Of a DNA stretch of 33,494 nt, positions 4,358 through 32,101 are shown piece after piece. Within the stretch, counting starts at the first letter, position 1. Each line of letters starts with the position of its first letter. Both the position numbers and the translations under genes were made by a program. Source of the stretch: Candidatus Saccharimonadales bacterium (GTDB lineage Bacteria > Patescibacteriota > WWE3 > UBA101185 > UBA10185); assembly GCA_035480775.1 (NCBI GenBank), contig DATIHK010000077.1, forward strand, positions 1 to 33,494. Direction: 5' to 3'. The notes below the pieces were generated by a model. The model was not told the DNA's origin, did not search any database, and saw only the letters and a list, made by a program, of their open reading frames with translations.

Positions 4358-5584
4358 ATGGCAGAGTTTAAACCCAAAACTTATTACATAAAAACCTTTG
4401 GATGTCAGGCAAATATTGCCGATTCAAATACCATTGGCGGAATTTTAGAAGCACTTAATTTTGAGCGAGTTATTACACTTGAAGCTAAAAATGAAGATGA
4501 AGCTTTACTAAAAATCATTCCACAGACAGATTTGTTTATAGTCAACACTTGTTCGGTTCGCCAAAAAAGCGAAGACAAAGCCTATGGAATAGGACGTATA
4601 ATGAAAAAAGTAAAAGATGCAACCGGTAAAAAACCTTTTGTCATCATGGCAGGTTGTATGGTGGGATCAGCAACTGGAGATCGTAAACGTATCGAAATGG
4701 ATGAACTCCGCAAAAAAACCTCTTATGTCGATACTTATATCAATCCGTCGCAGTTAATGCAGGTTCCGGATATTTTATTTCAACACGGAGTGTTGGACGA
4801 ATGGGCTGTTAAAACATTTAACGCCGAAGACGTTGTTGCTACTCAAGAAAATCCTACACATGCTTTTGTAAATATTTCTTACGGATGTGATAATTTTTGC
4901 ACTTTTTGTGTAGTTCCTTATGCGCGCGGAGCCGAAGTTTCGCGACCAGAATCTGACATTTTAAAAGAAATTGACCACTTAGCTAAACGCGGTTTTAAAG
5001 AAATTACTTTGTGCGGACAAAATGTTAACTCTTGGGGATTATCTATGAGCGACAAGTTTGAAATTCGTACAGGCAGTGATCAAAAGATTCCATTTGCAGA
5101 TTTGTTAAGAAAAGTTCACGCAATTGAGGGAATTGAGAAAATTTCATTTTTATCTTCAAATCCATTTGATTTTACAAATGATTTAATTGAAGCTATTCAA
5201 CTTCCCAAAATTTCAAATTACTTGCATATGGCGGTGCAGTCTGGAAATAATGAAGTATTACACCGCATGAATCGCCGACATACTGTCGAGGATTTTATCG
5301 TTTTAGCAAACAAAATAAAGTTGGCTAAACCACGCGTCGAATTTGGAACAGATATTATCGTAGGTTTTCCTGGTGAAACTCGCGAACAATTTATGGATAC
5401 GGTAAAACTTTTTCAAACTGTAAAATTTAACGTAGCTTTTATTTCTATTTATTCTCCACGCAAGGGAACTCCCGCTCAAAAATATTTTGAAGATGATGTT
5501 TCGCGTGATGAAAAAAAGTGGCGTCACGCCAAGTTAACCGAAATTTGGGAAGATACAAAAAAAGCTAGCGCCAAAAGTATCTAG
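4358..5584 (+). CDS. miaB: MiaB-family radical SAM methylthiotransferase, no C-terminal TRAM domain
   Basis: TFGCQAN, NTCSVR, AGC, GCDNFCTFCVVP, TDIIVGFPGET; near miaA; TGTTATAAT 7 nt before ATG. Confidence 0.9.
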   Translation: MAEFKPKTYYIKTFGCQANIADSNTIGGILEALNFERVITLEAKNEDEALLKIIPQTDLFIVNTCSVRQKSEDKAYGIGRIMKKVKDATGKKPFVIMAGCMVGSATGDRKRIEMDELRKKTSYVDTYINPSQLMQVPDILFQHGVLDEWAVKTFNAEDVVATQENPTHAFVNISYGCDNFCTFCVVPYARGAEVSRPESDILKEIDHLAKRGFKEITLCGQNVNSWGLSMSDKFEIRTGSDQKIPFADLLRKVHAIEGIEKISFLSSNPFDFTNDLIEAIQLPKISNYLHMAVQSGNNEVLHRMNRRHTVEDFIVLANKIKLAKPRVEFGTDIIVGFPGETREQFMDTVKLFQTVKFNVAFISIYSPRKGTPAQKYFEDDVSRDEKKWRHAKLTEIWEDTKKASAKSI

Positions 5585-5593
5585 ACGCTAGCT
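5557..5593 (-). terminator. 3' hairpin + U-tail of the 5628-5981 unit (lies within the miaB 3' end)
   Basis: Sense strand: agctagcg-tctagatacttttgg-cgctagct-ttttt. Confidence 0.6.
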
Positions 5594-5627
5594 CTGAAGT
5601 TCCAAACAATTGTAGTCGCTTAAAGTC

Positions 5628-5981
5628 TTAATCTTTTTTTCTGAGTAAAGATGCAAATGGTCCCAGAAAACCCATGATAAATGCATCTCTCTGTCTCATA
5701 GCTCCCTTAAACTCGTAGGTATATACGACCGTTGTTATTGGCATGAACACCGCCCACAAGCCGATACACAAAAATACTACAAAAATAGGAAATTCTTTTG
5801 GTGCGTGAGTTAATGCTGTAAGAACTATCCAGGAACCGGTCGCTGTAGTGAATGCAATTCCAACTAGACCACCCAACACAAAGGTTGTGTACAGCATTAT
5901 TTCTCGGTGATTTTCGAGCACGTTATTAGCGTACCGCAGACAAGCTCTAAAAAAAGAGCCGGCAAACCAAAGGAACATCAT
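5628..5981 (-). CDS. Orphan membrane protein (unit 1); start moved to the ATG at 5981
   Basis: Hydrophobic segments; SD GAGGGAGG 5 nt before ATGATG; promoter TTGAGA-17-TAAGTT at 6046-6018. Confidence 0.7.
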   Translation of the reverse strand: MMFLWFAGSFFRACLRYANNVLENHREIMLYTTFVLGGLVGIAFTTATGSWIVLTALTHAPKEFPIFVVFLCIGLWAVFMPITTVVYTYEFKGAMRQRDAFIMGFLGPFASLLRKKD

Positions 5982-6066
5982 GCTAGCCTCCCTCATGACC
6001 AACTCGAAGTTAAAAATAACTTAGCACAAAGTTGCGCCAGTCTCAACACTAGCTTAGTATGCAGCC

Positions 6067-6966
6067 ATGAACAAAAAAGTCTTTGTGATTGTCGGCCCAA
6101 CTTCTACCGGAAAAACTTCTCTGGCGTTGAATCTGTGCAAAAAATTTAATGGTGAAATAATTTCGGCTGACTCGAGGCAAATTTATAAATACATGGATAT
6201 TGGAACTGGTAAAATTCCACTAAATAGTAAACCCGACTTAACTAAAATTTGGGGATATGATTTAGTGGCTCCAGACCAATACTTTTCGGCCTATGACTGG
6301 GCTATGGATGCTCTGCAAAAGGCGAGTCAACTGCAAGAGCAGGGAAAAAACATTTTTTTGGTTGGGGGGACTGGTTTGTATATCGATATCTTCACACATC
6401 GCCAAGATGTCGCGAATATTAATCCCAATAAAGAATTGCGCGAATCATTGGAAAATTTGTCTACTGAAGTCCTCTTCTCTAAACTGATGTCGTTAAATCT
6501 ACAGAGGTCTAAAAATATAGATAAGCAAAATAAAATGAGATTAATTCGAGCAATTGAGGTTGAGGCGAGCAATTCCAAAAACACTCCCCTACCCTATTTA
6601 GCCAACGCCAAATTTATTTTTATCGGACTAACAGCAGAGCGCTCTATTTTATATTCGCACGTAGATAATTGGTTAGAAGCAATTTGGAAAAACGGCTTAT
6701 TGCCCGAAGTTTCTAAATTAATAAATTTAGGATTCGAAACTTCCCCAAAATTGCACGGTTTAGTTTACAAGAGTGTCTTGGCTTTTATGCAAAAAGATTT
6801 ATCTGAAAGTGCCGCAATAGAACGAGCAAAATTCGATCTCCACGCCTATATAAGAAGACAACAAACTTGGTTTAAACGTAATACAGATATTAATTGGTTT
6901 GATATTAGTCAAGAAAGCTATATAAAAGATATTCAAAAATTAGTTGAGTCGCATGTGGCTAATTAA
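6067..6966 (+). CDS. miaA: tRNA dimethylallyltransferase
   Basis: GPTSTGKT, ISADSRQIYKYMDIGTGK, VGGTGLY, RRQQTWF. Confidence 0.96.
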   Translation: MNKKVFVIVGPTSTGKTSLALNLCKKFNGEIISADSRQIYKYMDIGTGKIPLNSKPDLTKIWGYDLVAPDQYFSAYDWAMDALQKASQLQEQGKNIFLVGGTGLYIDIFTHRQDVANINPNKELRESLENLSTEVLFSKLMSLNLQRSKNIDKQNKMRLIRAIEVEASNSKNTPLPYLANAKFIFIGLTAERSILYSHVDNWLEAIWKNGLLPEVSKLINLGFETSPKLHGLVYKSVLAFMQKDLSESAAIERAKFDLHAYIRRQQTWFKRNTDINWFDISQESYIKDIQKLVESHVAN

Positions 6967-6986
6967 AGGTATAAATAGTAAAATCT

Positions 6987-7994
6987 ATGCAAATGGATAA
7001 ACAATTTGTAATTTCGGTTAAAACAATTTTGATAGCATTTTTAATGGTGCTGGGAGCTTATATTATTTACAGACTCGGAGGTATTCTATCGATTCTGTTA
7101 ATTTCAGTAATTATAGTTATCGGAATGGAGCCTTTAGTTAAGTTTTTTATGAAAAAGACTTTACTTAATAAATACCTTTCGAGAAGTTTTTCGGTTATTT
7201 TAGCTTATATTCTGTTAATTTTAGCTTTACTTATTATGTTTACCATTGGACTTCCACCGGTAATAATTCAAGTCGAAAAGTTGCTTTCTAATTTAGGTGT
7301 ATTGATTCAAAACTTGTCAGATAAATATGGAGTTAATGTATCGGTCAATAATCTTATACCCCAGTTTTCGCAATTATCTGGAGGAGTTTTGACAATTACC
7401 TACAATATTGTTTCAAATATCACCACAGTTTTGAGTATTTTAATTTTATCTATTTATATGTCTTTAGATTGGGAAAATATCAAAGAAAAATTTGTTAGTC
7501 TTTTTCCAGACAATATGGAAACCACTGTACTTGAAATATTTAATGATATTGAAGTAAGTGTCGGAAACTGGATAAAAGGTCAGTTGTTTTTGATGCTCGC
7601 AATTGGAGTCGCTTCTTTTGTCGGTTTAGTTTTAATTCATGTTAACTATCCACTGGCGTTAGGCATTGTAGCTGGACTGTTAGAGATAGTTCCTATTCTT
7701 GGTCCAATAATGTCGGGTGCCTTAGCTGGAGTAATTGGATTTTCGGATTCTCCAGTAAAAGGGCTAGCTGTTTTGGTTTTGTTTTTTATAATTCAACAGT
7801 CTGAAAATAATCTGTTGGTTCCCAAAGTTATGCAAAGAGTTTCTGGTTTCAGCCCATTGGTTATTTTAATCGCTCTGTTAATTGGAAGTGAATTTTTTGG
7901 AATTGTCGGCGCCATTTTGAGTGTGCCTGTAACCATGATTTCTGTTATCGTCGTAAAAAAGATTTTACTTTATACTTCAGCGGGAAGCGAGTAA
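6987..7994 (+). CDS. AI-2E family (PerM-like) transporter
   Basis: Multi-TM; IQQSENNLLVPKVM, GSEFFGIVGAILSVP. Confidence 0.9.
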   Translation: MQMDKQFVISVKTILIAFLMVLGAYIIYRLGGILSILLISVIIVIGMEPLVKFFMKKTLLNKYLSRSFSVILAYILLILALLIMFTIGLPPVIIQVEKLLSNLGVLIQNLSDKYGVNVSVNNLIPQFSQLSGGVLTITYNIVSNITTVLSILILSIYMSLDWENIKEKFVSLFPDNMETTVLEIFNDIEVSVGNWIKGQLFLMLAIGVASFVGLVLIHVNYPLALGIVAGLLEIVPILGPIMSGALAGVIGFSDSPVKGLAVLVLFFIIQQSENNLLVPKVMQRVSGFSPLVILIALLIGSEFFGIVGAILSVPVTMISVIVVKKILLYTSAGSE

Positions 7995-8326
7995 GCCAGA
8001 TTCTGTTTCATTGAGCGCCTCACGGCACATAATTATTGACATCTATCTACGCTCCATCTTTGTACCTCGTCGAGCAGACTGATAGCGGTACGTTCGTGGA
8101 TTGCTGCAGGTGGGATTGCCCGTTTCACTCTTTTTTCATGGCCGAAGCCGAAGAAAAAAGCTCGTCTCTGTGGCTCTCAAGTTGTGTCAATTCACAACCT
8201 GTTTCTTTAGGTTTTCACCCAAGAACACTAGCGGTTACCCGTCGGAAGTTACCTTCCATACCTTTGCTCTATGCAGTCTGGACTTTCCTCCAATTCGGTT
8301 AAGAATCGGTAGTCAACCTGCTTCCC
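7981..8326 (-). ncRNA. rnpB: RNase P RNA
   Basis: Minus strand has GAGGAAAGTCC, GCCACAGAGA, GTGAAACG..CCCACC..AGCAA and ACAGAATCTGGCTTAC; P1 closes as cgggaagc/gcttcccg. Confidence 0.93.
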
Positions 8327-8383
8327 GGGTGTATTTTACCACCTTTTGTGTGATATTATCTTAAAGCATAAGCTTAACTAAAT

Positions 8384-9523
8384 ATGGCCGAAGATTTAGA
8401 TCCAAATAAATTTCATATATTCTCACCTGCTCAAAGAAAAAAGATTGCAATTACGACAATGCTATTACTGTTAGTTTTGATCCCGGTTTTAGGATTTGTT
8501 TATTATAATTTTGCTATCAATCGTCCGGCTCAAAATGATAAGAGAATTACTGTTAAAATCGAAAAAGGTTTGGGTGTTAGTGGAATTTCAAAGCAACTAA
8601 GAGATCAAAATTTGATTAATTCCGAATTTTTATTTAGTTTTTACGTCGTTTCAAATCATCTTCAAAATAGTATTCAAGCAGGAGTTTACACAATTCCAGC
8701 AGGAACATCGATTGTAAAGTTAACAGATCTGCTTCAGCATGGTACAGATGATATTCGAATCACTTTTTTGGATGGTTGGAGAGTTGAAGAATATGCCCGT
8801 GAAGCAGTCAAGAAATTTAACAATATTGATTATGAGCAATTTATAAAGTTGGCAAAAAATGATGAAGGATATTTATATCCCGATACATATTTTTTTAACA
8901 GTGATGCCAGCGAAAAAGATCTAGTTCAAAAACTGCAAGAAAATTTTACGCTTCATACAAAAAATGTTTTAACCGAATCTCAACTTCAGAAAATGGGTTT
9001 AACTATGAATGACGCTATAACTTTAGCATCCATAGTCGAGCGCGAAGTTGCAAATGACAATGATCGACCCATTGTAGCCGGAATTCTCTTAAAACGCCTA
9101 AAAGCTGGAGCTTTATTAGGCGCTGACGCTACTACTCAATACTCGGTTGCTCTAATAGCTTTTTGCGCACCCGGGCTTCCACTAAATTGTTTTGATGGTT
9201 CTAAAGACTGCAATCTGCCAAATGATATTCGTCAATGTCTTGAAAAATATGGTAATACAGATTCTCAAAGAATATTATCTATAAATTGGTGGCCTCAAAG
9301 TATATCTCAAGAAGAAATACAATTTAATAGTCCTTACAACACAAGAGTAGTTGCGGGTCTTCCGCCAGCTCCAATTTCTAATCCTGGTATTGGGGCTATT
9401 AATGCTGTAATTAACGCAAAAGTAACTGACTACAATTTTTATCTCACAGATTCGCACGGAGTTACACATTACGCGAAGACCCTTGAAGAACATAATCGTA
9501 ATGCTGCTATATATCTGAAATAG
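8384..9523 (+). CDS. mltG: Endolytic transglycosylase MltG (YceG family)
   Basis: N-terminal TM; EGYLYPDTY, LASIVEREV, SPYNTR...GLPPAPISNPG, HYAKTLEEH. Confidence 0.94.
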   Translation: MAEDLDPNKFHIFSPAQRKKIAITTMLLLLVLIPVLGFVYYNFAINRPAQNDKRITVKIEKGLGVSGISKQLRDQNLINSEFLFSFYVVSNHLQNSIQAGVYTIPAGTSIVKLTDLLQHGTDDIRITFLDGWRVEEYAREAVKKFNNIDYEQFIKLAKNDEGYLYPDTYFFNSDASEKDLVQKLQENFTLHTKNVLTESQLQKMGLTMNDAITLASIVEREVANDNDRPIVAGILLKRLKAGALLGADATTQYSVALIAFCAPGLPLNCFDGSKDCNLPNDIRQCLEKYGNTDSQRILSINWWPQSISQEEIQFNSPYNTRVVAGLPPAPISNPGIGAINAVINAKVTDYNFYLTDSHGVTHYAKTLEEHNRNAAIYLK

Positions 9524-9932
9524 AACGTTCTAATAATTCTTTGGTAACTTTAATACCGTATTTATCCAAAAAGTCTGCGGATACAAGCACTTCTGCATTG
9601 CATTTAGCAGCTAGACAAATTCCGTCATTTAAATTAAGAGTAATATGACGAGTCGCGGTTGAACTTACTATTTTTAAAGTTGCTTTAAGTAGATTGGCTT
9701 CTTCAGCAATTATTATTTGAGTTACATTTATTTCTAAAGATCTAAAGCTTTCGACAATAAAATCTAAGTAAGTAGAGTTGCTATAAGTCACAGTTATTGG
9801 TAAAACAACTTTCTCTTTACGGTAAAAAAAGTACAAAGTATGCTCATTTTCATTAGGAATGGCAGCAATTAATGAAACAGCTTTAAGTTCTTTTGCATGT
9901 ATTAAGCTTGTAACTGTATAATGTGAGAGCAT
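9507..9932 (-). CDS. Divergent DUF151/bifunctional-nuclease-like protein
   Basis: VLPI, TYLDFI, and LNDGICLAAK.NAEVLV resembling RPSDAIALA..P; key motif residues eroded; start uncertain. Confidence 0.5.
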   Translation of the reverse strand: MLSHYTVTSLIHAKELKAVSLIAAIPNENEHTLYFFYRKEKVVLPITVTYSNSTYLDFIVESFRSLEINVTQIIIAEEANLLKATLKIVSSTATRHITLNLNDGICLAAKCNAEVLVSADFLDKYGIKVTKELLERSISDI

Positions 9933-10367
9933 ATGTTTAACCTGCTAATTAATCTCTATAACAAACTTGAACAAATAAAAGGCAGAAAGTTAGTTATTCT
10001 TTTGCTAGTAATTTTTATAATTTTTTTAGCTTTTGGTTTAAGCTTTGGTTACATTACACAAATATTATTAAATAAAACTGAACAAACAAAATTTGTTTCT
10101 ACGTCAACTGGGCAACAAATAGTGGCTAGATCTTTTGACGGTTTAGTTACGTACGTAAATCCAAATCAATATCCAGCTGATAATGTTACTTATGCGCTAG
10201 TAGATGCAAATGGTAAAGTTGTGATTTTATTGCGTAGTAGAGATCAAAAATTAGTGGTATCAGAAGGACATAATGTACGAGTAAAAGGTATAGTAGAAAA
10301 AAGTGCAGATGGTACAAAGGATATTTTAAATGTTGATGAGGTAATTATAAAAAATGGTGCTAATTAG
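9933..10367 (+). CDS. Membrane-anchored hypothetical protein (possible OB-like beta domain)
   Basis: One TM helix, then a beta-rich region (EGHNVRVKG.V). Confidence 0.7.
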   Translation: MFNLLINLYNKLEQIKGRKLVILLLVIFIIFLAFGLSFGYITQILLNKTEQTKFVSTSTGQQIVARSFDGLVTYVNPNQYPADNVTYALVDANGKVVILLRSRDQKLVVSEGHNVRVKGIVEKSADGTKDILNVDEVIIKNGAN

Positions 10368-10423
10368 CGCACCTTTTGCATACAAAATGACGTTGCACGT
10401 CTTTTGTATGCTTCGAATACAAA

Positions 10424-11110
10424 ATGGCGCAAATTGATTTTAAAAACATCACAAAAGAATACGAAGTCTCCAAAAAAGCATTAGATGATGTAACTTTTTC
10501 TATCGACGATGGAGATTTTGTATTTTTGGTTGGTCCATCGGGAGCTGGCAAATCAACTTTAATTAAAATGTTAATTCGAGAAGAATTGCCTTCCTCAGGT
10601 GAAATATTATTTTATGGCGACAGTATTTTTGGAATTCAACGCGACCAGATTTCTAATCTACGTAGAAGAATAGGAGTTGTATTTCAAGATTTTAAGCTGC
10701 TAGACTCTAAAAATGTTTTTGAAAATGTCGCTGTAGCTTTAGATGTTGTTAATAGTCCGAGAGAAGTTGTAAACAATGTCGTCCCAAATGTTTTGGGTAT
10801 GGTTAATTTATTGAGTAAAAAAAATAATTTTCCTGCGCAACTTTCTGGTGGTGAAAAACAGCGTGTTGCTATAGCTCGAGCGTTGGCCCACGAGCCCGAC
10901 GTGTTAATTGCCGATGAACCAACCGGAAATATCGATCCCCAAGCATGTGAAGAAATAATACAAATATTAGAAAAAGTTAATTCATTAGGGACGACTATAA
11001 TTATGGCGACCCACGATCAAGAAATCGTAGATAAATTAAAAAAACGAGTAGTCAGATTAGAAGACGGTAAAATGGTATCAGATAAAAAAGGAGGTAAATA
11101 TCGTGCTTGA
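10424..11110 (+). CDS. ftsE: Cell division ABC ATPase FtsE
   Basis: GPSGAGKST, LRRRIGVVFQDFKLL, LSGGEKQR, ADEPTGNID. Confidence 0.95.
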   Translation: MAQIDFKNITKEYEVSKKALDDVTFSIDDGDFVFLVGPSGAGKSTLIKMLIREELPSSGEILFYGDSIFGIQRDQISNLRRRIGVVFQDFKLLDSKNVFENVAVALDVVNSPREVVNNVVPNVLGMVNLLSKKNNFPAQLSGGEKQRVAIARALAHEPDVLIADEPTGNIDPQACEEIIQILEKVNSLGTTIIMATHDQEIVDKLKKRVVRLEDGKMVSDKKGGKYRA

Positions 11111-11981
11111 AATGTGGAAAGACTTAAAAATTAATTTACAACGCGAACGCTTATTGGCGATTACTAATATAATTGTTATGACACTGACCTTTTTATTTTT
11201 ATCTATGTTTGTGTATGTCGTCGCTATTTCACAAACTGCTTTAAAGCAGCTTGAAGATCAAGCTCAAATTACGGTTTTTTTTAAAGATGATTTTCCTGAA
11301 AGCAAGATCTTAGATTTACAGAAAAATTTACAAAGTGACCCGCGAGTTGCTCAAACAGTTTACGTTTCAAAAGCTGAAGCTTTCAAAATTTTTACAGAAA
11401 TTCATAAAGACGAGCCCATTTTATTAAAAGCAGCTTCGCCTACTATACTTCCTGCGAGTCTTGAAATTAAAGCCAAAGATCTTGCAAAACTTTCGGTACT
11501 TGCAGATGAATTTGGCAAAAAAGATGGAGTTGAAGAAGTAAAATTTTACCGAGACGTAATAGAACGCTTTAGATATTGGGGAAATATAATATACGCCGTT
11601 GGATTTGTTTTGACAGCATTGTTTTTGATAATTTCGTATTCGATAGTTTTAGTAACTCTTAGATTAACAATAAATGCCAAAGGTACCGAATTAGAAATTC
11701 TAAAATTAGTCGGTGCTACAGATACTTATGTAAAGGCTCCATTGTTATTCGAAGGCACATTTTTTGGAATTGTATCGGCTGTAATTGCTTCGGTTATTGT
11801 TGTGTTGGCTACAACAGTAATAAAAGCGACTCATCTTTTTGGTGGAAGTGTCGCATTTGGCTTTGTTAGATTTGATTTTATGTTATTTGCGATATTGCTT
11901 TGCGTAATTCTATTAATATCTGGAACTCTGCTTGGCTATTTCGGCAGCTCAGTAGCTGTCAAAAAATATTTAAAGTACTAA
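11103..11981 (+). CDS. ftsX: Cell division permease FtsX
   Basis: Four TM helices and an extracellular loop; YVSKAEA, LPASLEI, ELEILKLVGAT..YVKAP. Confidence 0.93.
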   Translation: MLEMWKDLKINLQRERLLAITNIIVMTLTFLFLSMFVYVVAISQTALKQLEDQAQITVFFKDDFPESKILDLQKNLQSDPRVAQTVYVSKAEAFKIFTEIHKDEPILLKAASPTILPASLEIKAKDLAKLSVLADEFGKKDGVEEVKFYRDVIERFRYWGNIIYAVGFVLTALFLIISYSIVLVTLRLTINAKGTELEILKLVGATDTYVKAPLLFEGTFFGIVSAVIASVIVVLATTVIKATHLFGGSVAFGFVRFDFMLFAILLCVILLISGTLLGYFGSSVAVKKYLKY

Positions 11982-11984
11982 TCC

Positions 11985-13220: not shown

Positions 13221-13251
13221 TTTTTAATTTTTCCAATTTATATTTATTCAT

Positions 13252-22832: not shown

Positions 22833-22874
22833 ATTCAAATATACAAACTAAAAATTAGTGATTATAATTATTAC

Positions 22875-23057
22875 ATGACTGGTAACAGAACTGTAAGACA
22901 ATTAATGGTATTGGTTGTAATGTTTGTAGTTATCGTGGGAATCGTAGTTTTTATATTAGCCAAGCTTGGATTAAATCTTCCTATTCCACTAATTGTAGTT
23001 CTTTTATTTCCGCTATTTTTGGGATTTGCAGCTTATATTAAAAACAGAATTAATTAA
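22875..23057 (+). CDS. Small 2-TM membrane protein
   Basis: Two hydrophobic helices; TATAAT 6 nt before ATG. Confidence 0.7.
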   Translation: MTGNRTVRQLMVLVVMFVVIVGIVVFILAKLGLNLPIPLIVVLLFPLFLGFAAYIKNRIN

Positions 23058-23658: not shown

Positions 23659-23708
23659 ATTTAAATTATACACTGAAAAATTTCTAGCATACTTGCGCTA
23701 TTATATCA

Positions 23709-24824: not shown

Positions 24825-24910
24825 ACTAATTTGTATTGCAAAGTATTTAAGTTGTGAGTAAAATCTATTAAAGTTTGCTGCGGCCTTGGAAAATCTAAGG
24901 AGAGGACCCA

Positions 24911-25249
24911 ATGCATGTAAGAATGCCAGCTCGTGGCCAGCCAGAAGTTCTGATCCGCGAATTGGAAGAGGCGGGTATCGGACATGGTGCCGTCGATGTC
25001 CCCGTCACCCTCCACCGCGTTCGTCTCGCCCCCGGGGCACTCAAGGACGAAGCGCTGCTCTACTTCTGTCCCATGGAAGGGATCTCACTCCGCCGGAGCC
25101 TCTCTTTGCGCCGGCCGGTCCTGGGCGAGAATGAATATCCGGCAAGTACCGTGGTGGTAACAGGACAGGTCGCGCAACGCAACGGACTGTTCGACCTCAA
25201 AGCGCGAATAACCTGGAACGGTCGTCTCGCCGTCGCCGTCGAAGCCTAG
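24911..25249 (+). CDS. GC-rich orphan protein (unit 4)
   Basis: About 63% GC in a sampled line; TTGCAA-17-TAAAAT (24836-24864); SD AAGGAGAGG; own 3' hairpin. Confidence 0.72.
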   Translation: MHVRMPARGQPEVLIRELEEAGIGHGAVDVPVTLHRVRLAPGALKDEALLYFCPMEGISLRRSLSLRRPVLGENEYPASTVVVTGQVAQRNGLFDLKARITWNGRLAVAVEA

Positions 25250-25309
25250 CATCCTCACCGCTGATCTCTAACGAAAAGGAATTAACTTTGTCGCCGCAGC
25301 GACCGAGTA

Positions 25310-25352
25310 AGGCCGGAACATATCTCACGATATCTTCCGGCCTGTATTTTTT
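25310..25352 (+). terminator. 15-bp 3' hairpin + U-tail of unit 4
   Basis: aggccggaacatatc-tcac-gatatcttccggcct-gtatttttt. Confidence 0.75.
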
Positions 25353-25378
25353 ATAAATTTCAATTCTATTTAGAAAAT

Positions 25379-25429
25379 AAAAAAACCGTCAGATCTGTGC
25401 GAAGTACTTGTGCACGGACACTGACGGTT
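25379..25429 (-). terminator. Long interrupted 3' hairpin + U-tail of unit 5
   Basis: Sense strand: aaccgtcag-tg-tccgtgc...gcacaga-t-ctgacggtt-tttttatttt. Confidence 0.75.
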
Positions 25430-25466
25430 GCGCTACGCATGTCGGAGATTACATACGAAGCTGAGA

Positions 25467-26417
25467 CTAAGGAGCTGCTTGCGTTTGGGCCGGGAAGGTG
25501 ACGCTTGGATTGTTGCCGCCGCCGACTGAGACCACGAGATTGTTGGCTTTCTGGGAATTGAGCCAGATCAGTTGCAGGTAGGCGATGCAAGACTCGGATG
25601 TGGTCATCTTGGCAATAATGCAGGCCGTGAGATGCCCGTTGGCCAACTTCTGTGCGACCTCGACCTGTGTGTCAGCTTGAATGCCAGCGGTTTTTTGCTG
25701 AATTTCAGCCGCCTGCAGTTCAAAGTTCGCCTGGTCTATCTTGGTCTGCGACAAAAATGCTTGGTCGTAGGCCGCCTCGAGATCCTTGTCGGTGAATTGC
25801 CAGGTTTTCAGTGAGATGATGTGCGGTAAAACATGCAGCTTTTCGAATGCATCCGCAGTCTGCCTTCTAATCTCTTCGACCACGGCGTTTCGGTTGTCGG
25901 TCAGATCTCGCGGGACAAAGAGCGCCGTTGCATTGGCCGTCCCTTGCGTGATTTCTGTCTGCCACGCCGTTGTGATGACATCGAGGCCGCCGTTATACCT
26001 GGCGTATTGCTCGGCCCAATTAATCTGCGTGCTATCGATGGTGAAGCACACATTAACGGTGACTCCGGCGCCGCCCTTAACACTGGGGGTCAGAATCGGG
26101 CACCATTGCCAGTCGGACTGATAAGGGTATTCAAACGTATCTCTGAAAAACCAAGGCACGCTTTGGATTCCGGGGTAGCGTAACTGCGCTTCTGGCTTTC
26201 CGGTTCCCTGGTTGACTACAACCACAGCCTTGTTCGGGGCAACCGCGATCGTTGAGCCGGTGTAAAACCAGAGAAAGCCGAAGACCAATGTCAGCAGGCC
26301 CATGGTACCAGCTCCGCCCTTTCTGTTTTGCACAAGCAGAGCAATGGCCGAGACGAGCGCACACAGAGCCGCGATCGCCATTACAGACGAAAAAAGTGAG
26401 TTAAGAAAAAACCACAT
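25467..26417 (-). CDS. SPFH/band-7 (prohibitin-like) membrane protein (unit 5); start moved to the ATG at 26417
   Basis: Two N-terminal TM helices, SPFH-like core, Ala/Gln coiled coil; SD GGAGG 5 nt upstream; TTGAGT-17-TATAAT (26514-26486). Confidence 0.75.
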   Translation of the reverse strand: MWFFLNSLFSSVMAIAALCALVSAIALLVQNRKGGAGTMGLLTLVFGFLWFYTGSTIAVAPNKAVVVVNQGTGKPEAQLRYPGIQSVPWFFRDTFEYPYQSDWQWCPILTPSVKGGAGVTVNVCFTIDSTQINWAEQYARYNGGLDVITTAWQTEITQGTANATALFVPRDLTDNRNAVVEEIRRQTADAFEKLHVLPHIISLKTWQFTDKDLEAAYDQAFLSQTKIDQANFELQAAEIQQKTAGIQADTQVEVAQKLANGHLTACIIAKMTTSESCIAYLQLIWLNSQKANNLVVSVGGGNNPSVTFPAQTQAAP

Positions 26418-26547
26418 GGTATCCTCCAATAGGGATAGATGTTCGGTGGGCAACTCGTCTCCGTCGAGTTGTTTTTACTCGGCGGATTATACCAAAAAAA
26501 GGTCCTCGACTCAAGAGCTATAGGGTATGTATTATAAGTGTTGATAA

Positions 26548-27231
26548 TTACTTTTCGAGTTTGTTATACAAAACAGCCATAACATATAGCCAGACAGTTC
26601 CTATTAAGTAAGACCCTAAAACATCAGAAAACCAGTGCGCTCCTATATAAATGCGTGAAATACCAATTCCTATAAGAAGTATCGCTAAAATAAGTAAAAG
26701 CGAGTTTCGCAAAAACGACTTTTTAAATTTAGTAAAAAGAAAAATAAATAAAAATCCAAACAGTCCAATAAAATGCAAAACATGTCCAGATGGAAAACTG
26801 TCATTTTTGACAAAAATTCCAATTTGATGAATGAGTAGAGCATTAGGCCTTGGTCTGGCAACGAGCTCTTTTACTAATAAGCCAATAAGTGAAACTCCAC
26901 AACTTGAAATAAGCATTACAACTACAGCACTATAACGCTTTATCAATAAAAGTATAAATGATATAAGCAAGATACTTATAGCCGCAGCTACAGGATTTCC
27001 TAAATTTGTTAGTGTAAACATAAAAACATCAAATCCGGGAAAAGTTATTTGTTGTATTGATCGAGTAATAACTAAATCAAAACTAAAGTACGGAAAATTT
27101 CGAGCTAAAAATGCCAACACAATAAATACTCCTATCAATATTATAAGAAAGTCTTGTACAACAGAAATTCTCTGAAAAAATGTTGGTTTTGCAACAGTGT
27201 GCTTTTCGATGGTTTGCTGTGTTACTCTCAT
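26548..27231 (-). CDS. PAP2-family phosphatase (undecaprenyl-PP phosphatase-like)
   Basis: KELVARPRP, SFPSGH, SRIYIGAHWFSDVLG. Confidence 0.93.
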   Translation of the reverse strand: MRVTQQTIEKHTVAKPTFFQRISVVQDFLIILIGVFIVLAFLARNFPYFSFDLVITRSIQQITFPGFDVFMFTLTNLGNPVAAAISILLISFILLLIKRYSAVVVMLISSCGVSLIGLLVKELVARPRPNALLIHQIGIFVKNDSFPSGHVLHFIGLFGFLFIFLFTKFKKSFLRNSLLLILAILLIGIGISRIYIGAHWFSDVLGSYLIGTVWLYVMAVLYNKLEK

Positions 27232-27306
27232 ATTTAAATTATAGCGTAACTATGTAAAGTCCACTTTACTTTTTTTTGCTTAAAAGAGTGTATATACTGC
27301 AGATAC

Positions 27307-28005
27307 ATGAAGCAGCTACACGAAATTCAATTAAATATTTTACGGGATTTATTATTTTCTGATGTACTACGCTATTCAGATATCAAACCTGTAGATATGG
27401 AAAACAGTCAGATTGTGTTTCATATAGATAAACTTATCGAAAATGGCTTGGTCACCAAAGTAGATACTTTATATAAACTTACCGATGCCGGAAAAGAATA
27501 CGCCAATCAAATAGACACCGATATAGTAAAAGTTCCGCACGCCGTAAAAGCTACAACTATTTTTTGCGCGGTTAGAAATGCTTCTTCCGAAAAAGAATAT
27601 TTAATATATAAACGACTTAAAAATCCATTTTATGGGTGTCTGGGTTTTCCAACAGAAAAACCAAAATGGGGCGAAACTTTAGAAGGCGCTGCCAAACGTG
27701 GATTAAAAGAAGAAGCAAATTTAGATGGAGAAGGTAAATTATTTGCGATTAGACACTACTTAGTTTTTTCAAAAGAAAGTGGTGAGATCGTTGAAGATAA
27801 ATTGATGCATGCATTTTTGTTTATAAATCCAACGGGAAATTTAGCTGGAAATATAGAGGGCGATTACCAATGGATTAAAGAAAGTGAGTTGTCTCAAAAA
27901 GTTATTCCAGCGCTTGAAGAGTTTTCTGAAATATTAGAGGCTTTAAATAATTTTAACGGAGTTGTAAGTTTTAAAGAATTAAAAATAGCAACTTCTAAAT
28001 TTTGA
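27307..28005 (+). CDS. Winged-HTH + Nudix-domain protein
   Basis: N-terminal wHTH (FHIDKLIENGLV..YKLTDAG); variant Nudix box GETLEGAAKRGLKEEANL. Confidence 0.82.
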   Translation: MKQLHEIQLNILRDLLFSDVLRYSDIKPVDMENSQIVFHIDKLIENGLVTKVDTLYKLTDAGKEYANQIDTDIVKVPHAVKATTIFCAVRNASSEKEYLIYKRLKNPFYGCLGFPTEKPKWGETLEGAAKRGLKEEANLDGEGKLFAIRHYLVFSKESGEIVEDKLMHAFLFINPTGNLAGNIEGDYQWIKESELSQKVIPALEEFSEILEALNNFNGVVSFKELKIATSKF

Positions 28006-28006
28006 T

Positions 28007-28444
28007 ATGAAAATTACATTGTGTGGAAGTGTTACATTTTTAGATGAAATGAATAAAATGACCCAGGAACTTTTGGAAATAGGGTTTTCTGAAGTTCTAC
28101 TTCCGGTTGGATTTGGAGGAAATGAGCGCAAACATAAAGCCGAATTAACCGTCGAAGAAGATGGTCAAAGAAAAATTGAGCACAATTTAATAGAAAAGCA
28201 TTATATAAAAATACTCAATTCTGATTGTGTTTTAATAGTAAATTATACAAAAAACGGTGTTGAAAACTACATTGGTGGTAATACTTTGCTTGAAATTGGA
28301 TTCGCATTCGTTAACAAAAAGCCAATCTATCTTTTGAATCCAATTCCTTCTATTCACTATGCGCCTGAAATCTTAGGAATGCAGCCAACTATTTTAAATG
28401 GTGATATTTATAAATTAAAGAAATTAGTTGATCAATATGCTTAA
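28007..28444 (+). CDS. Nucleoside 2-deoxyribosyltransferase-like (NDT-fold) protein
   Basis: ITLCGS, SDCVLIVN, YIGGNTLLEIGFAFVNKKPIYL. Confidence 0.65.
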   Translation: MKITLCGSVTFLDEMNKMTQELLEIGFSEVLLPVGFGGNERKHKAELTVEEDGQRKIEHNLIEKHYIKILNSDCVLIVNYTKNGVENYIGGNTLLEIGFAFVNKKPIYLLNPIPSIHYAPEILGMQPTILNGDIYKLKKLVDQYA

Positions 28445-29396
28445 TGTTCTAAAAACCACAAAATTTGTTGTCGATAATTCGCAATCGGTAAAAATAAACA
28501 ATGCTAATTTAAAAAAAATGGGCGCAAGTGTTACAGAAAAAGAATTAAAACTTAGTGATTTAGATTTAAGTTCTAACAACTGGAATTTTAATCAATTGCA
28601 CTACCTTACTCTTGTTTTTAATGCTCTGGTTTATAACTTTTGGGCCGAAAAAGATCAACCAAAATGGACAATTAAAACAAATAAAACAACTCTGGATGGA
28701 AGTGTTGCACTTTTTTTGGCTCTCGAAATTGAAGCTCAAACAAACAAAGATTTTTTCAAACCACAGTACCTTGCCAACTTCTCTTATGAAAATGCAAAAA
28801 AACTTTTTAAAGGTAACACAGAAATTCCACTATTTCATAATCGAGTTAGTTGTATACGCGAACTTGGCTATGTTTTAAAAAATAAATTTTCATCTAATGC
28901 TAATAAAATAATTGATGTTTCTAATCGAGATGCCGTTAAAGTTGTAGAATTTTTAAGCGAGACAATGCCTTTGTTTAACGATGTTCGTTCATATAAAGGT
29001 ACAAAAGTTGGATTTTATAAGCGTGCTACACTTCACGCGAAAATGCTCAACGATTTATTAAAAAAATACAATAAGTCCCAACTAAAAAACATGCACAAGC
29101 TCACCGCCATCGCTGATTATAAAATTCCACAAATTTTACGCAGTGTAGGAATATTTGAATACTCAAGTGATTTGGCGGAACACATCGATTCTTACAAAAT
29201 AGTCAACGAAAATAGCGAATACGAAGTCGAAATTCGAGCAGCTACAATTTGGGCTGTAAAATATTTGACACATGAAATAAACAAAAAGTTTCCTCACATT
29301 GTGGCGGTAGATACTGATAATATTTTATGGAAATTGTCGCAAAACGCTACACCGAACTTTAAACCTTACCATCGAACGTACACAATCGATTACTAA
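28437..29396 (+). CDS. Queuosine salvage protein (QNG1/DUF2419 family); start probably ATG 28437
   Basis: FYKRA, LTAIADYKIPQILR, EVEIRAAT, D..LW, PYHRTYTIDY end. Confidence 0.88.
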   Translation: MLNVLKTTKFVVDNSQSVKINNANLKKMGASVTEKELKLSDLDLSSNNWNFNQLHYLTLVFNALVYNFWAEKDQPKWTIKTNKTTLDGSVALFLALEIEAQTNKDFFKPQYLANFSYENAKKLFKGNTEIPLFHNRVSCIRELGYVLKNKFSSNANKIIDVSNRDAVKVVEFLSETMPLFNDVRSYKGTKVGFYKRATLHAKMLNDLLKKYNKSQLKNMHKLTAIADYKIPQILRSVGIFEYSSDLAEHIDSYKIVNENSEYEVEIRAATIWAVKYLTHEINKKFPHIVAVDTDNILWKLSQNATPNFKPYHRTYTIDY

Positions 29397-29443
29397 AAAT
29401 AAAACGGCCACACAAATGCGTAACTTAACATATGTATGGCCGC
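29395..29443 (-). terminator. 14-bp 3' hairpin + U-tail of unit 6
   Basis: Sense strand: cggccatacatatg-ttaagttacg-catttgtgtggccg-ttttattttt. Confidence 0.72.
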
Positions 29444-29475
29444 TCGTCTTGCAATAATTCTGTACCTACTTTTGG

Positions 29476-29862
29476 CTAGTCAGCTTCGATCAAATGATCT
29501 ATGTCGTCGAGTGTGAGAGCTACGCCCATTTTGACTTCAAAAGAAGGGGTGGAAAGCGTCATCAACTGCGCAATAGCATTATGAATCACTTGCTCGGATG
29601 TGCCGCCCAAAACACCTTTGTGTACGAGTGAGAGTTCTTTAAAAGCCAAAAGCAGCTTTTTTCGGATATCTTTGATTTTGTCCCAGTTGCAATGGTCTGC
29701 CGATGCCAAAAGCTCGACTGTGACTTCTCCTGCCCTGGGTTTTCCATACACATGTAAGATCGGAACACCTGACTTCTGGATGATCGTATAGATCATTTCG
29801 TATTCGCTCGTGAAGCCAAGCCACCTTAGTCCACCTGTTGAACGTACTCTTGCGATGGTCAT
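29476..29862 (-). CDS. Orphan protein (unit 6)
   Basis: GC higher than flanks; TTGTAT-17-TATAAT (29938-29910); about 40-nt leader with only a weak SD; own hairpin. Confidence 0.68.
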   Translation of the reverse strand: MTIARVRSTGGLRWLGFTSEYEMIYTIIQKSGVPILHVYGKPRAGEVTVELLASADHCNWDKIKDIRKKLLLAFKELSLVHKGVLGGTSEQVIHNAIAQLMTLSTPSFEVKMGVALTLDDIDHLIEAD

Positions 29863-29953
29863 GTTATTCTCGCTTTCTTATTTGAGATGGTAAGTTAAAT
29901 GCTGAAAAGATTATACGGTAATAATTGTACGCATACAACTGCTATAGGTTTTG

Positions 29954-30607
29954 TTAGTTATTGGGAGCTGCGCCGAAAATAATTAATTTAGTACCGGTAC
30001 CGTTTTCTTGCTCTGACGACGCCCAGTTAAATACTTCGGCTGCTTGATCAGTTCTCATATTTATACATCCGTGACTCATGGGGTGTCCAAAGTTATGATG
30101 CCAGTAAGTCCCGTGAATTCCATATCCTTTATATTTTGGTACATCTGCATTGTAAAAAAACATTGTATACGGAACATTTGGGAGATCATAAAAAGTATTT
30201 ATAGCTTTGGATCCTCCCACCATATGTACATACCTTAATTTTGTCCAGATTCTAAATTCACCTGTAGGAGTTGGAGCCCATTTCCCGGTTGAAACCAAAT
30301 AAGAATGAATTTTTTTACTTCCTTCATAAGTAGTTAATGTTTGTGTTGTTAAATTAACTTCGATGCGCTTTTCTTTTCTGTTAGAGTGCGAGCCCAAAAC
30401 ATTTTCTGCTAGTTGTGTCGGAGTCGGAATTTCGGTGGGAACTTGCACTTTTTCTCCGTGAAATTCGGCGGTTTTTGCATTAGAATCGAAAGTTTCTTGG
30501 AGTAAATTGGGATTTATGTTTGCTTGCCTATTTAGATATTGCAAAACAGGTTTGTACAGTATGACTAAAGCAATTATGGGCAAAATAATTAAGGCAAGGC
30601 GCTTCAT
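29954..30607 (-). CDS. L,D-transpeptidase (YkuD domain)
   Basis: VSTGKWAPTPTG.F, GIHGTYWH..FG..MSHGCINM. Confidence 0.93.
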   Translation of the reverse strand: MKRLALIILPIIALVILYKPVLQYLNRQANINPNLLQETFDSNAKTAEFHGEKVQVPTEIPTPTQLAENVLGSHSNRKEKRIEVNLTTQTLTTYEGSKKIHSYLVSTGKWAPTPTGEFRIWTKLRYVHMVGGSKAINTFYDLPNVPYTMFFYNADVPKYKGYGIHGTYWHHNFGHPMSHGCINMRTDQAAEVFNWASSEQENGTGTKLIIFGAAPNN

Positions 30608-30652
30608 GTAAATAAATTATACTATTATTTTGTTGGAGTTGGATAAATTTAT

Positions 30653-30688
30653 AAAAAGAAGCGCGGATACAAAATAATATCCGCGCTT
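30653..30688 (-). terminator. 11-bp 3' hairpin + U-tail of unit 7
   Basis: Sense strand: aagcgcggata-ttattttg-tatccgcgctt-cttttt. Confidence 0.75.
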
Positions 30689-30710
30689 TGCGTAATTGGT
30701 AAAGCGAGTT

Positions 30711-31979
30711 CTAGGGGTTTGGCAGAGCAATCATTACTCGGTGTAAAGCAACTCCGCCCCACATTTCCAGATGCAACATACTGTTTACTCCTGGAACGAA
30801 AGCTGCCCAGCTTCCCATTGTTGGAAGGAAGTACAAGATCCAGTTGTTTGTTGGATCAGTTTGGGCATACGAGAAACTTGTGTAATCATCTCCAAGATCG
30901 GGCAAGGAGTGGTTCCAGGTGTCGCCGGGAATATTCCAAGCGCTATAGGGATAACCCTTGATGTACAGATTGTCTTCTCCATACCACAGCGGTTTGCTCC
31001 CCGGGCATTCGCTATAGGATCCTCCGCTATCTACCACATGTGTAACTGTCAGTGCTGAGTCGATAGAGGCGATACGACATTCGCTCTGTCCGTTCGGGTC
31101 GCCAACGTCTTTGAGCCAGTAATAGTAAAGCTGGCTGCCGTTTGGACTTAGCGATTCTTTCTGGCTAGTTACATCCAGCTGAGGAGCTGCAAGGCCCGTG
31201 GTATCTGTTAACCAATATGTGTTAGTAAACACATTGTAGGTTCCGTTGCCGAACTGCTCAAAAGTTCCGTAGGCGCGCACGCGGGATTGCTGATTGTGTC
31301 CAGCACTAACAACTTTGAGCGCGAGCAGCTTACCCGCTTGCAATTGCCAAGTTTGTAAGTCTGGATCAAAGCCGATATGTTCTGTTGTGACTGATCCATC
31401 ACCATGTACTTCTCCAAGATCAATTCCACCATACGGATTGCGTACGGCAAAGAATTGCCCATCGGAATAGATGGCTTCATAAGCTGTCCATAAGGAAGTG
31501 GTTACAGTTTGACCAGTCGTAAACGATTGATACGTCACCACGTTGTGATAAGGTGCTGTGGTGTTAAGCGTCACCAGTAGGTAATCGTTATCAGTTGGTA
31601 TTACCCAAGCGGAATCGAACTTGCCGTGGTTTACACCCGCAGACGTCTGGGTATTCACGCCAGTATTGGATCTGTGCACGATCTGCCATTGCGCATCCTG
31701 CCAGACAATAGCGTAGGTGATAGCCCAAGATTCTACCTGAGTAGCTGTTGCGGTGGGGGTTTGTGTTGGTGTCTGTGAAGGCGAAGGAGTGCTTGTAGAA
31801 GTTGCTATAGCGGTTGCCGTTGGTGATGGCGTTGCGGTGATGTCGTCAGCTACGCGCACTACCAGTGGCATATAAATCGTGTGATTTTCGCCGGCCTGTG
31901 CTCCGTTGACGATCAACAAGAGCGGGAGCGACAAAACAACTACAAGACTTACTATGCCCCAAAGCTTGCTTCTGTTCAT
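30711..31979 (-). CDS. Secreted orphan protein with an IYMPLV motif, a Thr/Pro linker and a beta-rich body (unit 7)
   Basis: Signal peptide ending AQA; SD AGGAGGT 6 nt upstream; TATAAT at 32015-32010; about 50% GC. Confidence 0.82.
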   Translation of the reverse strand: MNRSKLWGIVSLVVVLSLPLLLIVNGAQAGENHTIYMPLVVRVADDITATPSPTATAIATSTSTPSPSQTPTQTPTATATQVESWAITYAIVWQDAQWQIVHRSNTGVNTQTSAGVNHGKFDSAWVIPTDNDYLLVTLNTTAPYHNVVTYQSFTTGQTVTTSLWTAYEAIYSDGQFFAVRNPYGGIDLGEVHGDGSVTTEHIGFDPDLQTWQLQAGKLLALKVVSAGHNQQSRVRAYGTFEQFGNGTYNVFTNTYWLTDTTGLAAPQLDVTSQKESLSPNGSQLYYYWLKDVGDPNGQSECRIASIDSALTVTHVVDSGGSYSECPGSKPLWYGEDNLYIKGYPYSAWNIPGDTWNHSLPDLGDDYTSFSYAQTDPTNNWILYFLPTMGSWAAFVPGVNSMLHLEMWGGVALHRVMIALPNP

Positions 31980-32101
31980 TTTTGAACCTCCTGGGATTGT
32001 TTAAATAGGATTATACACTATAAGATATAGGGGACAAATAAGCGCAAAGCTCCAATAAAGATAAAACTTATACAGCGTTATAGACTTAAGCATAAAATGT
32101 A

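Follow-up and report, generated by a model that had tools for sequence, protein, structure and literature searches.

Probable imported expression modules with Shine-Dalgarno leaders among predicted leaderless genes of a Candidatus Saccharimonadales bacterium

The contig DATIHK010000077.1 of a Candidatus Saccharimonadales bacterium (assembly GCA_035480775.1), which was analyzed over its entire length of 33,494 nucleotides (nt) and is hereafter called the window, carries seven dispersed GC-rich genes, each of which appears to be equipped with its own promoter, leader and terminator. In our judgment, these seven units probably belong to a genome-wide class of about 60-75 horizontally acquired, self-contained expression modules. 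Compared to the resident genes among which they lie, members of this class use Shine-Dalgarno (SD) sequences and strong intrinsic terminators far more often, they are rarely conserved in a related genome, where eight of their sites are empty, and the ribosomal RNA (rRNA) of the bacterium keeps a canonical anti-SD sequence.

The class was delimited in the whole assembly (G000; 915,627 bp in 91 contigs, 36.8% GC, estimated 95.5% complete), of which the window is one complete contig (C77). Open reading frames (ORFs) were called as the longest, greedily chosen and non-overlapping ones, with those overlapping rRNA or RNase P RNA dropped, which gave 1,028 ORFs of at least 60 amino acids (aa). The ORFs with at least 45% GC were taken as the GC-rich class, and those with less than 42% GC and at least 80 aa as residents. 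An SD, scored as a 4-mer SD core at positions -20 to -4, precedes 44 of 75 GC-rich ORFs, compared to 112 of 821 residents (odds ratio 9, p = 2e-17), while two upstream control windows gave 4/75 and 2/75 for the GC-rich ORFs and 52/804 and 48/794 for the residents. Terminators, scored as a hairpin of -12 kcal/mol or lower that abuts a T-run within 120 nt past the stop, follow 32/75 GC-rich ORFs and 53/768 residents (p = 2.5e-15), or 31/53 and 40/258, respectively, when only genes with a downstream gap of at least 40 nt are considered. The joint occurrence of high GC, SD and long hairpin, which the initial annotation of this DNA had noticed in the window, is therefore found across the genome. 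ORFs of the intermediate GC bin (0.42-0.45) have SDs in 24/57 cases (42%) and terminators in 24/55 (44%). Low-GC genes without a homologue in the related genome G017 (see below) have SDs in 47/301 and terminators in 32/282 cases; given these low rates in low-GC accessory genes, the signals track composition and not accessory status alone.

The GC content of the genes has a main peak at 0.36 and a heavy right tail. For the GC content at third codon positions (GC3), a two-component mixture fits better than a single component (Bayesian information criterion -2459 vs. -1902), with the second component comprising 16% of the genes at GC3 0.44; of the bimodality whose presence had been raised at the outset, the better two-component fit is thus there, but the distribution is a tail and not two clean peaks. 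The GC-rich units reach a GC content of 0.64 and their GC3 spans 0.37-0.81, which suggests several sources or ages. Inspection of the GC-rich patches on both strands yielded 58 units that encode 75 aa or more and have a strong SD. They occupy 3.8% of the genome; because this set was picked by SD, it was left out of the SD statistics. The same split between GC-rich and resident genes is repeated in a second genus, as represented by G017, a closed genome of the same family (897,158 bp, 40.4% GC): its genes of GC 0.44-0.48 have SDs in 68/111 and terminators in 47/111 cases, and those of GC 0.36-0.40 in 59/370 and 12/369 cases, respectively.

The class is also accessory. A G017 homologue was found for only 5/77 GC-rich ORFs, compared to 528/834 residents (p = 8e-24), and in the reverse direction 11/111 and 5/34 of the GC-rich G017 genes have a homologue in G000, compared to 49-62% in the other classes. 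Three of the five shared genes have GC-rich homologues in G017, with 25-38% identity, a GC content of 0.49-0.50 and different, non-syntenic neighborhoods. For nine units in eight slots of G000, the orthologues of the flanking genes are only -11 to 130 bp apart in G017, so that the search for empty orthologous sites in a relative, which the initial annotation had put forward, returned them in number; three more slots hold a different GC-rich, SD-led cargo in G017. At the compared slots the indels comprise the whole module, i.e., promoter, leader, ORF and terminator. Unrelated GC-rich SD-led genes occupy the same intergenic slots at C61:956-2581 versus G017:71008-73586 and at the C44:3094 slot. 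The sharing of slots with differing cargo suggests insertion hot spots or cargo replacement. In the window, the genes at 180-14899 are collinear with G017, and units 2 and 3 lie within 5.5 kb that are absent from the orthologous G017 junction. The slot of unit 1, between miaB and miaA, is filled in G017 with 726 bp of unrelated DNA, and for units 4-7 the surrounding region has no synteny with G017.

The residents begin their genes in another way. Their SD excess over background is about 7%, and their SDs are not conserved: an SD was found in 6 of 31 orthologues of residents with a strong SD and in 70 of 422 orthologues of residents without one. Missed starts cannot explain this low use, as an SD followed by an in-frame start within 150 nt downstream was found for at most 47/792 residents, and one wrong frame gives similar counts. 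Upstream of 220 operon-first residents, T is found at -12 in 44%, A at -11 in 56% and T at -7 in 47%, with TG enriched at -15/-14, and TATAAT-like hexamers starting at -18 to -7 number 97, compared to 7-18 per 6-nt bin elsewhere. A -10 box located 6-8 nt before the ATG implies that the operon-first residents are leaderless. Of the 19 window residents whose upstream gap measures 30 nt or more, 10 have a TANNNT that ends 5-10 nt before the start codon; miaB and the genes for PAP2 and YkuD are among these 10. Strong promoters lie no more than 12 nt from the ATG in 32/91 residents and in 0/29 GC-rich units, for which the median distance is 47 nt; genome-wide, 29/57 GC-rich units have a strong promoter match. 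Judged by these motifs, the prediction that the resident genes are mostly leaderless or SD-independent is supported, in line with the first impression gained from the window. The leaderless signature, together with a GC-rich tail, is also seen in G230, a genome of another family in the same class, whose first 400 kb were used for the comparison of SDs and terminators.

The 16S rRNA of G000 ends in GGATCACCTCCTTTCT, with a canonical CCUCC anti-SD, and the CCUCC end is the same in G017 and G230. The ribosomes of G000 can thus pair with the SD sites of the units. Tsurumaki et al. (2022; PMC9297842) report that some of the Parcubacteria have lost the anti-SD motif. With the canonical end in its own 16S rRNA and in those of two relatives, the suggestion of the initial annotation that the SDs of the units are tuned for a different translation system falls, and with it the premise for the boldest explanation that it had offered, namely that the units are messenger RNA (mRNA) effectors, i.e., symbiont transcripts that are translated on host ribosomes. 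Only the contrast between SD-led units and SD-poor residents speaks for this explanation. In about half of the products the N-terminus forms a membrane or signal segment, which fits the cell's own envelope, the glycosyltransferase-like unit 3 adjoins a native paralogue within a sugar-modification cluster, no RNA export signal or machinery was seen, and we know of no precedent for mRNA effectors. We regard this explanation as hardly credible.

The seven units were found at the positions and with the general anatomy first assigned to them. All are open frames with an ATG start. Their coding GC content, listed below, compares to a genome mean of 0.368; the GC enrichment noted by eye is real, but the range given for it (45-65%) is not, since the measured values are 41-61% and unit 1 is only marginally GC-rich. 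An SD is located 4-8 nt upstream of the ATG in six of the seven units, unit 6 being without one. Sigma70-like hexamer pairs end 30-112 nt upstream of all seven ATGs, which predicts leaders of about 25-105 nt from motif matches, and a strong hairpin begins 22-68 nt past the stop and is followed by a U-run in every unit. When the 120 nt downstream of each stop were folded and compared to 200 shuffles each, the z-scores were -3.3 to -6.2 and no shuffle (0/200) was as stable. These features, too, agree with the initial annotation, as does the lack of an integrase on the contig. The features of the seven units are as follows (minus and plus denote strands).

5982-6046, minus: unit 1, predicted promoter and leader; TTGAGA-17-TAAGTT at 6018-6046 (9/12), SD GGGAGG at 5987-5992, 36 nt from the -10 to the ATG
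5628-5981, minus: unit 1, coding sequence; 117 aa, small membrane protein, GC 0.41, between miaB and miaA
5557-5595, minus: unit 1, predicted terminator; hairpin 33-67 nt past the stop, U-run, z -3.3, overlapping the 3' end of the convergent miaB
15214-15294, minus: unit 2, predicted promoter and leader; TAGACT-17-TATAAT with TG at 15266-15294, SD GAGGAGG at 15222-15228
15010-15213, minus: unit 2, coding sequence; 67 aa, N-terminal hydrophobic helix, GC 0.51
14925-14985, minus: unit 2, predicted terminator; z -4.3
16287-16428, minus: unit 3, predicted promoter and leader; TTGACA-18-TACAAT at 16399-16428 (11/12), leader of about 105 nt, SD AAGGAG at 16295-16300
15525-16286, minus: unit 3, coding sequence; 253 aa, GC 0.58, GC3 0.81, predicted GT-A (family 2-like) glycosyltransferase fold
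15403-15456, minus: unit 3, predicted terminator; 19-bp perfect stem, z -6.2
24836-24910, plus: unit 4, predicted promoter and leader; TTGCAA-17-TAAAAT at 24836-24864, SD AAGGAGAGG at 24897-24905
24911-25249, plus: unit 4, coding sequence; 112 aa, GC 0.61, no known family
25310-25353, plus: unit 4, predicted terminator; z -4.8
26418-26514, minus: unit 5, predicted promoter and leader; CTATAG, then TTGAGT-17-TATAAT (TG) at 26486-26514, SD GGAGGA at 26422-26427
25467-26417, minus: unit 5, coding sequence; 316 aa, GC 0.54, predicted membrane-anchored SPFH/Band 7-like protein
25377-25429, minus: unit 5, predicted terminator; z -4.8, facing the terminator of unit 4
29863-29947, minus: unit 6, predicted promoter and leader; CTATAG, then TTGTAT-17-TATAAT at 29910-29938, no SD
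29476-29862, minus: unit 6, coding sequence; 128 aa, GC 0.46, no known family
29393-29445, minus: unit 6, predicted terminator; z -6.0, overlapping the 3' end of the convergent queuosine-salvage gene
31980-32037, minus: unit 7, predicted promoter and leader; TTGTCC-16-TATAAT at 32010-32037, SD AGGAGGT at 31986-31992
30711-31979, minus: unit 7, coding sequence; 422 aa, GC 0.49, signal/anchor helix, Thr/Pro/Ser/Ala-rich linker and domain of unknown fold
30652-30688, minus: unit 7, predicted terminator; 12-bp stem

The genes that flank the units have housekeeping functions (miaB, miaA, tsaE, PAP2, queuosine salvage and YkuD). Between 14000 and 33494, promoter-like sites are not in excess (54 vs. 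58.2 +/- 7.1 in shuffles), and of the 11 best matches in this part (at least 10/12), four precede units 2, 3, 5 and 7; the promoters of the window are, as motif matches, plausible placements and not proof. A longer ORF antisense to unit 2 (14968-15246, plus) has neither an SD nor a terminator. The leader of unit 3 (16301-16398, minus) contains a hairpin-plus-T stretch, AAAGGCTTTG..CAAAGCCTTTT followed by TGTT, which by eye resembles an attenuator or a terminator within the leader. Units 1 and 6 have predicted terminators that overlap the 3' ends of convergent resident genes and may terminate transcription in both directions.

That such units are an artefact, either of chimeric assembly or binning or of GC-rich non-coding RNA genes misread as ORFs, is very improbable. 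Contigs from four separately assembled runs of one soil study bridge GC-rich units and AT-rich flanks at even depth (X1 over 21689-31295; X2 over 14000-19774, 24754-26613 and 26584-30291); X1 is possibly the source sample, and the runs all stem from that one study. Searches of the whole window with Rfam at its gathering thresholds and with ARAGORN returned no RNA gene, so that the seven units are not known RNA genes. ORFs of 112-422 aa with an ATG, a well-spaced SD and a GC3 above the GC content at second codon positions are not chance products, and the models of units 3 and 5 show recognizable folds. A misreading of the second kind does occur at an eighth GC-rich island of the window (about 0.46), which holds an RNA gene and no unit: 7976-8328 (minus) encodes a divergent bacterial RNase P RNA (RF00010, 79 bits, E = 2.6e-24), which falls below the gathering score of 100 and was hence missed by the search at gathering thresholds, and the ORFs 8036-8302 and 8101-8364 called over it are spurious. 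Many ORFs of 40-60 aa in the GC-rich patches look spurious as well. The RNase P RNA is 71% identical to the syntenic segment of G017, and the gene of the RNase P protein is found at 2800-3147. At positions 25226 and 31475, contigs of three runs match up to the position and then continue into unlike GC-rich sequence, with a slightly raised depth; the window sequence that follows 25226 is a GC-rich repeat of low complexity, and the loose ends may be cross-matching sequences from other organisms or variant alleles. Positions 1-183 of the window are protein-identical to part of a 747-aa ORF on contig C3, which is a contig-end overlap or an assembly repeat.

Many units share a further element, the palindrome CTATAG, which is found 0-4 nt before the -35 hexamer. 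Examples are unit 5 (26515-26520) and unit 6 (29942-29947) in the window and, elsewhere in G000, the sites C64:2250-2288 and C33:8172-8209 and those on C48 and C90. CTATAG precedes GC-rich SD-led genes more often than other genes in G000 (9/44 vs. 14/267), G017 (13/48 vs. 22/212) and G230 (5/11 vs. 6/111). The composite CTATAG-N0-3-TTGNNN-N15-19-TANNNT was found before 13 ORFs of G000, nine of which are GC-rich, compared to a genome share of 12% (p = 2e-6). CTATAG itself is rare in G000, with 198 sites, 44 of which are intergenic, compared to an intergenic share of 9% of the genome. As resident leaderless promoters rarely carry it, the earlier view that the promoters of the units look native is doubtful. 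CTATAG was also considered as a flanking repeat or target-site duplication and rejected, since it is found downstream of 3/58 units compared to 22/187, i.e., without enrichment. Its regularity speaks for one of two things: the modules share a source, or a factor of the host acts on promoters of this type.

This regularity is the main reason why a native origin of the class stays under consideration. In that case the units would be a selected set of leadered, SD-dependent and terminator-insulated genes, mostly for surface proteins, under a CTATAG promoter, and their high GC content and strong signals would not be traces of import but would be kept by selection, acting for instance on mRNA stability or on regulation of the set as a block. 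Such an origin would account for the enrichment of CTATAG abutting the -35 in three genomes of two families, for the three families that are GC-rich in both G000 and G017 at only 25-38% identity, and for the retention of the anti-SD in a genome whose residents hardly use SDs. N-terminal hydrophobic segments are also slightly more common in the GC-rich units (27/58 vs. 277/834 residents, p = 0.045). It is difficult, however, to reconcile a native set with the near absence of conservation in a genome of the same family, where the few conserved members are non-syntenic, or with eight slots that are empty there; the spread of GC3 resembles mixed origins or ages and not one optimum, and the members have no common function or family. 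We therefore consider a native origin unlikely. A doubtful proposal is that this bacterial family has two start grammars, a leaderless or SD-independent core and a fast-turnover, SD-dependent and terminator-insulated accessory set of mostly envelope and secreted proteins, the latter with CTATAG abutting the -35 of its promoters and switchable as a block. If it were true, the accessory set would be the reason why a genome otherwise free of SDs retains the anti-SD, and the block could be switched through a CTATAG-binding factor or the availability of the anti-SD, either by the cell or by a mobile element that supplies the modules.

The products of the units have few recognizable relatives. None of the seven window units matched Pfam, compared to 15/20 residents of the window (E <= 0.001), among them 9/10 size-matched small ones. 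Among the GC-rich proteins of G000, 2/59 had Pfam matches, a divergent second adenylate kinase and an M23 peptidase, and in G017 Pfam domains were found in 3/35 GC-rich SD-led proteins. Unit 5 is, by its model, a divergent membrane-anchored SPFH/Band 7-like protein: in a protein atlas it had a feature score of 0.97 (196/256 shared), all 30 matches were to PF01145, and the structures aligned with a template modeling (TM) score of 0.63. It also matches phrog_200 (E = 6e-10), has no Pfam match at E <= 0.1, and no match to it was found in 40 relatives. The atlas model of unit 3 aligns with PF00535 clusters (TM 0.59-0.66; feature score 0.94, but 138/256 shared; no Pfam match), so that it has a predicted GT-A glycosyltransferase fold; one distant homologue only was returned by the homologue search. 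Unit 3 is 27% identical (E = 9e-14) to the adjoining AT-rich gene at 16513-17292 (minus), a paralogue with GC 0.34 and no Pfam match, and both stand in a sugar-modification cluster with epimerase/dehydratase, methyltransferase and glycosyltransferase-like genes. By sequence, the two look like the imported and the native version of one glycosyltransferase-like protein.

A HMMER search with unit 7 in 1.84 billion representative proteins returned the protein itself, one weak relative (E = 3e-9) and nine low-complexity matches. One database holds a gene model of 315 aa for this unit, compared to the SD-led ORF of 422 aa, and gene callers trained on resident starts will mis-start or miss such units. 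Overall, most products of the GC-rich class are accessory proteins without a known function, small and either membrane-bound or secreted; the divergent SPFH-like protein, the predicted GT-A glycosyltransferase, the M23 peptidase and the second adenylate kinase also belong to the class. The adenylate kinase gene (C10:1025-1714; L052) has a GC content of 0.51, an SD and a terminator, and its product is 27% identical to that of the resident adk (C47:13628-14239); the matching slot in G017 is filled with other GC-rich DNA. The sole multi-gene block of the class, C65:7947-15664 (L076), consists of seven consecutive SD-led genes on the same strand (GC 0.47-0.50) and runs to the contig end; its products are mostly membrane or secreted proteins, and apart from the M23 peptidase they have no Pfam or PHROG match. 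Paralogy inside the class is limited to C30:6655/C30:7400 and C88:5523/C88:5834, a trivial contig-end overlap aside, and the class is thus not an expanding family.

Taken together, these results point to repeated acquisition of insulated, moron-like single-gene modules from a GC-richer, possibly phage-linked pool. The recipient would be a small CPR-like soil bacterium (CPR, Candidate Phyla Radiation) in which most native genes are leaderless or need no SD, and strong intrinsic terminators rarely follow them. In each module, a sigma70-type promoter, which often has CTATAG directly adjoining its -35, would be followed by a leader of 25-105 nt that contains a canonical SD, by an ORF of foreign base and codon composition (mostly a single gene, occasionally two to seven) and by a strong hairpin-U terminator, and the modules would occupy intergenic gaps between conserved resident genes. 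Their transcription would rely on the RNA polymerase of the cell and their translation on its ribosomes with the canonical anti-SD, while the terminator would insulate the neighbors against read-through. Because a leaderless start grammar is not one that a gene dropped into an intergenic gap can borrow, imports would need complete signals, and only those that arrive or persist as complete expression units would be kept. This suggests a compatibility filter on gene transfer, through which only genes with complete expression signals persist.

Several points weigh against this account. All expression signals are sequence predictions, and the ORFs are longest-ORF calls with no trained gene finder behind them. 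The link is weak in G230, where SDs were found in 6/25 and 5/19 and terminators in 5/25 and 0/19 cases. The empty sites could in principle be deletions in G017, and within the window an indel can be demonstrated for units 2 and 3 alone. A CTATAG/-35 element common to three genomes is not expected from many unrelated donors. No donor was found: units 7 and 3 are near-orphans, and the GC-rich adenylate kinase is at most 41% identical to its relatives (32-41%, in many phyla and archaea) among 185,579 species representatives. A tblastn search with units 3 and 5 in 50,697 GenBank phage records gave no match, nor did scans of viral contigs with unit 5 and C65:10466-12634 or of metagenome contigs with a 30-nt loose-end consensus and C61:956-1879. 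G000 contains no prophage, no terminase (Terminase_6N) and no integrase near the units; its two PF00589 tyrosine recombinases are on C59 and C28, and none is on the window contig.

Another proposed source is the chromosome of a GC-richer physical host, from which an episymbiont could have captured genes together with their native SDs and terminators. The elevated GC content and GC3 agree with such a source, SDs and intrinsic terminators are in the common bacterial style, and the family of C84:3546-4385 is broad, with 497 homologues (best 60-66% identity) that are taxonomically mixed and include records named Armatimonadota and Woesebacteria; across 400 genomes of the phylum besides G000, this protein had partial matches in three. 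Chromosomal genes should, however, mostly match Pfam and have close relatives, which is not what was observed for the GC-rich proteins in general or for the adenylate kinase, and no donor-like contig was found in the metagenome scans. This source also presupposes episymbiosis, which for this organism is hypothetical. The small genome, the soil-metagenome origin and the lack of ribosomal proteins uL30 and bL9, neither of which was found in G000, fit a CPR/Patescibacteria bacterium. A third ribosomal protein, uL1, likewise escaped detection in G000; as four relatives have it, its absence is an assembly gap and not a trait. Capture from a host chromosome is in our view distinctly unlikely. Of the more conservative proposal in the initial annotation, repeated capture of single genes is consistent with the accessory status, the empty slots and the non-syntenic positions, while the host-like donor was not found. 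For both units examined in this respect (3 and 5), the nearest look-alikes are in phage-rich protein clusters, with viral shares of 77-100% and 50-54%, respectively, in the nearest atlas clusters, although such taxon labels are thin evidence by the tool's own warning. The donor pool of the modules would be GC-richer, SD-using, poorly sampled and possibly phage-linked.

In the portions of the literature covered by our search, no description of a split between a leaderless core and SD-led imports was met for CPR bacteria. New here are the difference between imports and residents in the mode of translation start, the scant use of SDs by residents although the anti-SD is kept, and the promoter-proximal element shared by the imports. 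If the split holds, elevated GC, an SD leader and a strong terminator would together be a sequence-only marker of recent imports in this CPR family. Most of these imports encode proteins of unknown function, and the probable location of these proteins is the cell surface, the place of contact between a host-dependent bacterium and its partner. The split is also relevant to the question why the anti-SD is retained in a lineage that is SD-poor and largely leaderless.

Among the lineages with little SD use but a retained anti-SD are the Bacteroidota, and leaderless genes abound, for example, in the Actinomycetota and Deinococcota. G000 shares with such lineages the little use of SDs by residents, the -10 box directly before the ATG and the CCUCC end of the 16S rRNA. 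It differs from SD-poor lineages in that its SD-led minority consists of accessory genes of foreign composition, without a conserved native subset. Ordinary acquired islets and orphan genes have atypical GC content, also by codon position, a patchy distribution, empty sites in relatives and few database relatives. The class of the units is like them in its atypical composition, patchy distribution and empty orthologous sites. It is unlike them in that the imports are GC-richer than the recipient and are almost all single genes with complete expression signals, in that the class differs from the residents in promoter position and in SD and terminator use, and in the lack of tRNA-linked islands and mobility genes. 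Integron gene cassettes resemble the units in carrying a single accessory gene, often without a known function, with an imperfect hairpin behind it; the units, in contrast, are dispersed and not arrayed, have their own predicted promoters, have no integron integrase nearby, and their hairpins carry U-runs like terminators.

The closest known concept is the phage moron. In the parts of the work of Cumby, Davidson & Maxwell (2012; PMC3594210) drawn on here, morons are described as extra DNA relative to related genomes, with their own promoter and terminator and a deviant GC content, and usually with one accessory gene that often encodes a membrane or surface protein. Measured against that description, the units are like morons in being independent transcription units by prediction (promoter 7/7, terminator 7/7) and in their GC content of 0.41-0.61, compared to 0.37 for the genome and with unit 1 marginal. 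They may also be like morons in being extra DNA: outside the window, eight slots with nine units are empty in G017, and in the window this is seen for units 2 and 3, while the slot of unit 1 holds unrelated DNA in G017 and units 4-7 have no syntenic flanks there. Unlike morons, they are located in a cellular chromosome amid housekeeping genes and not in a phage or prophage, with no terminase and with no integrase on the contig, and their mode of translation start differs from that of the surroundings, which is not part of the moron definition as given there. By analogy, the units would thus work like morons without being members of that class.

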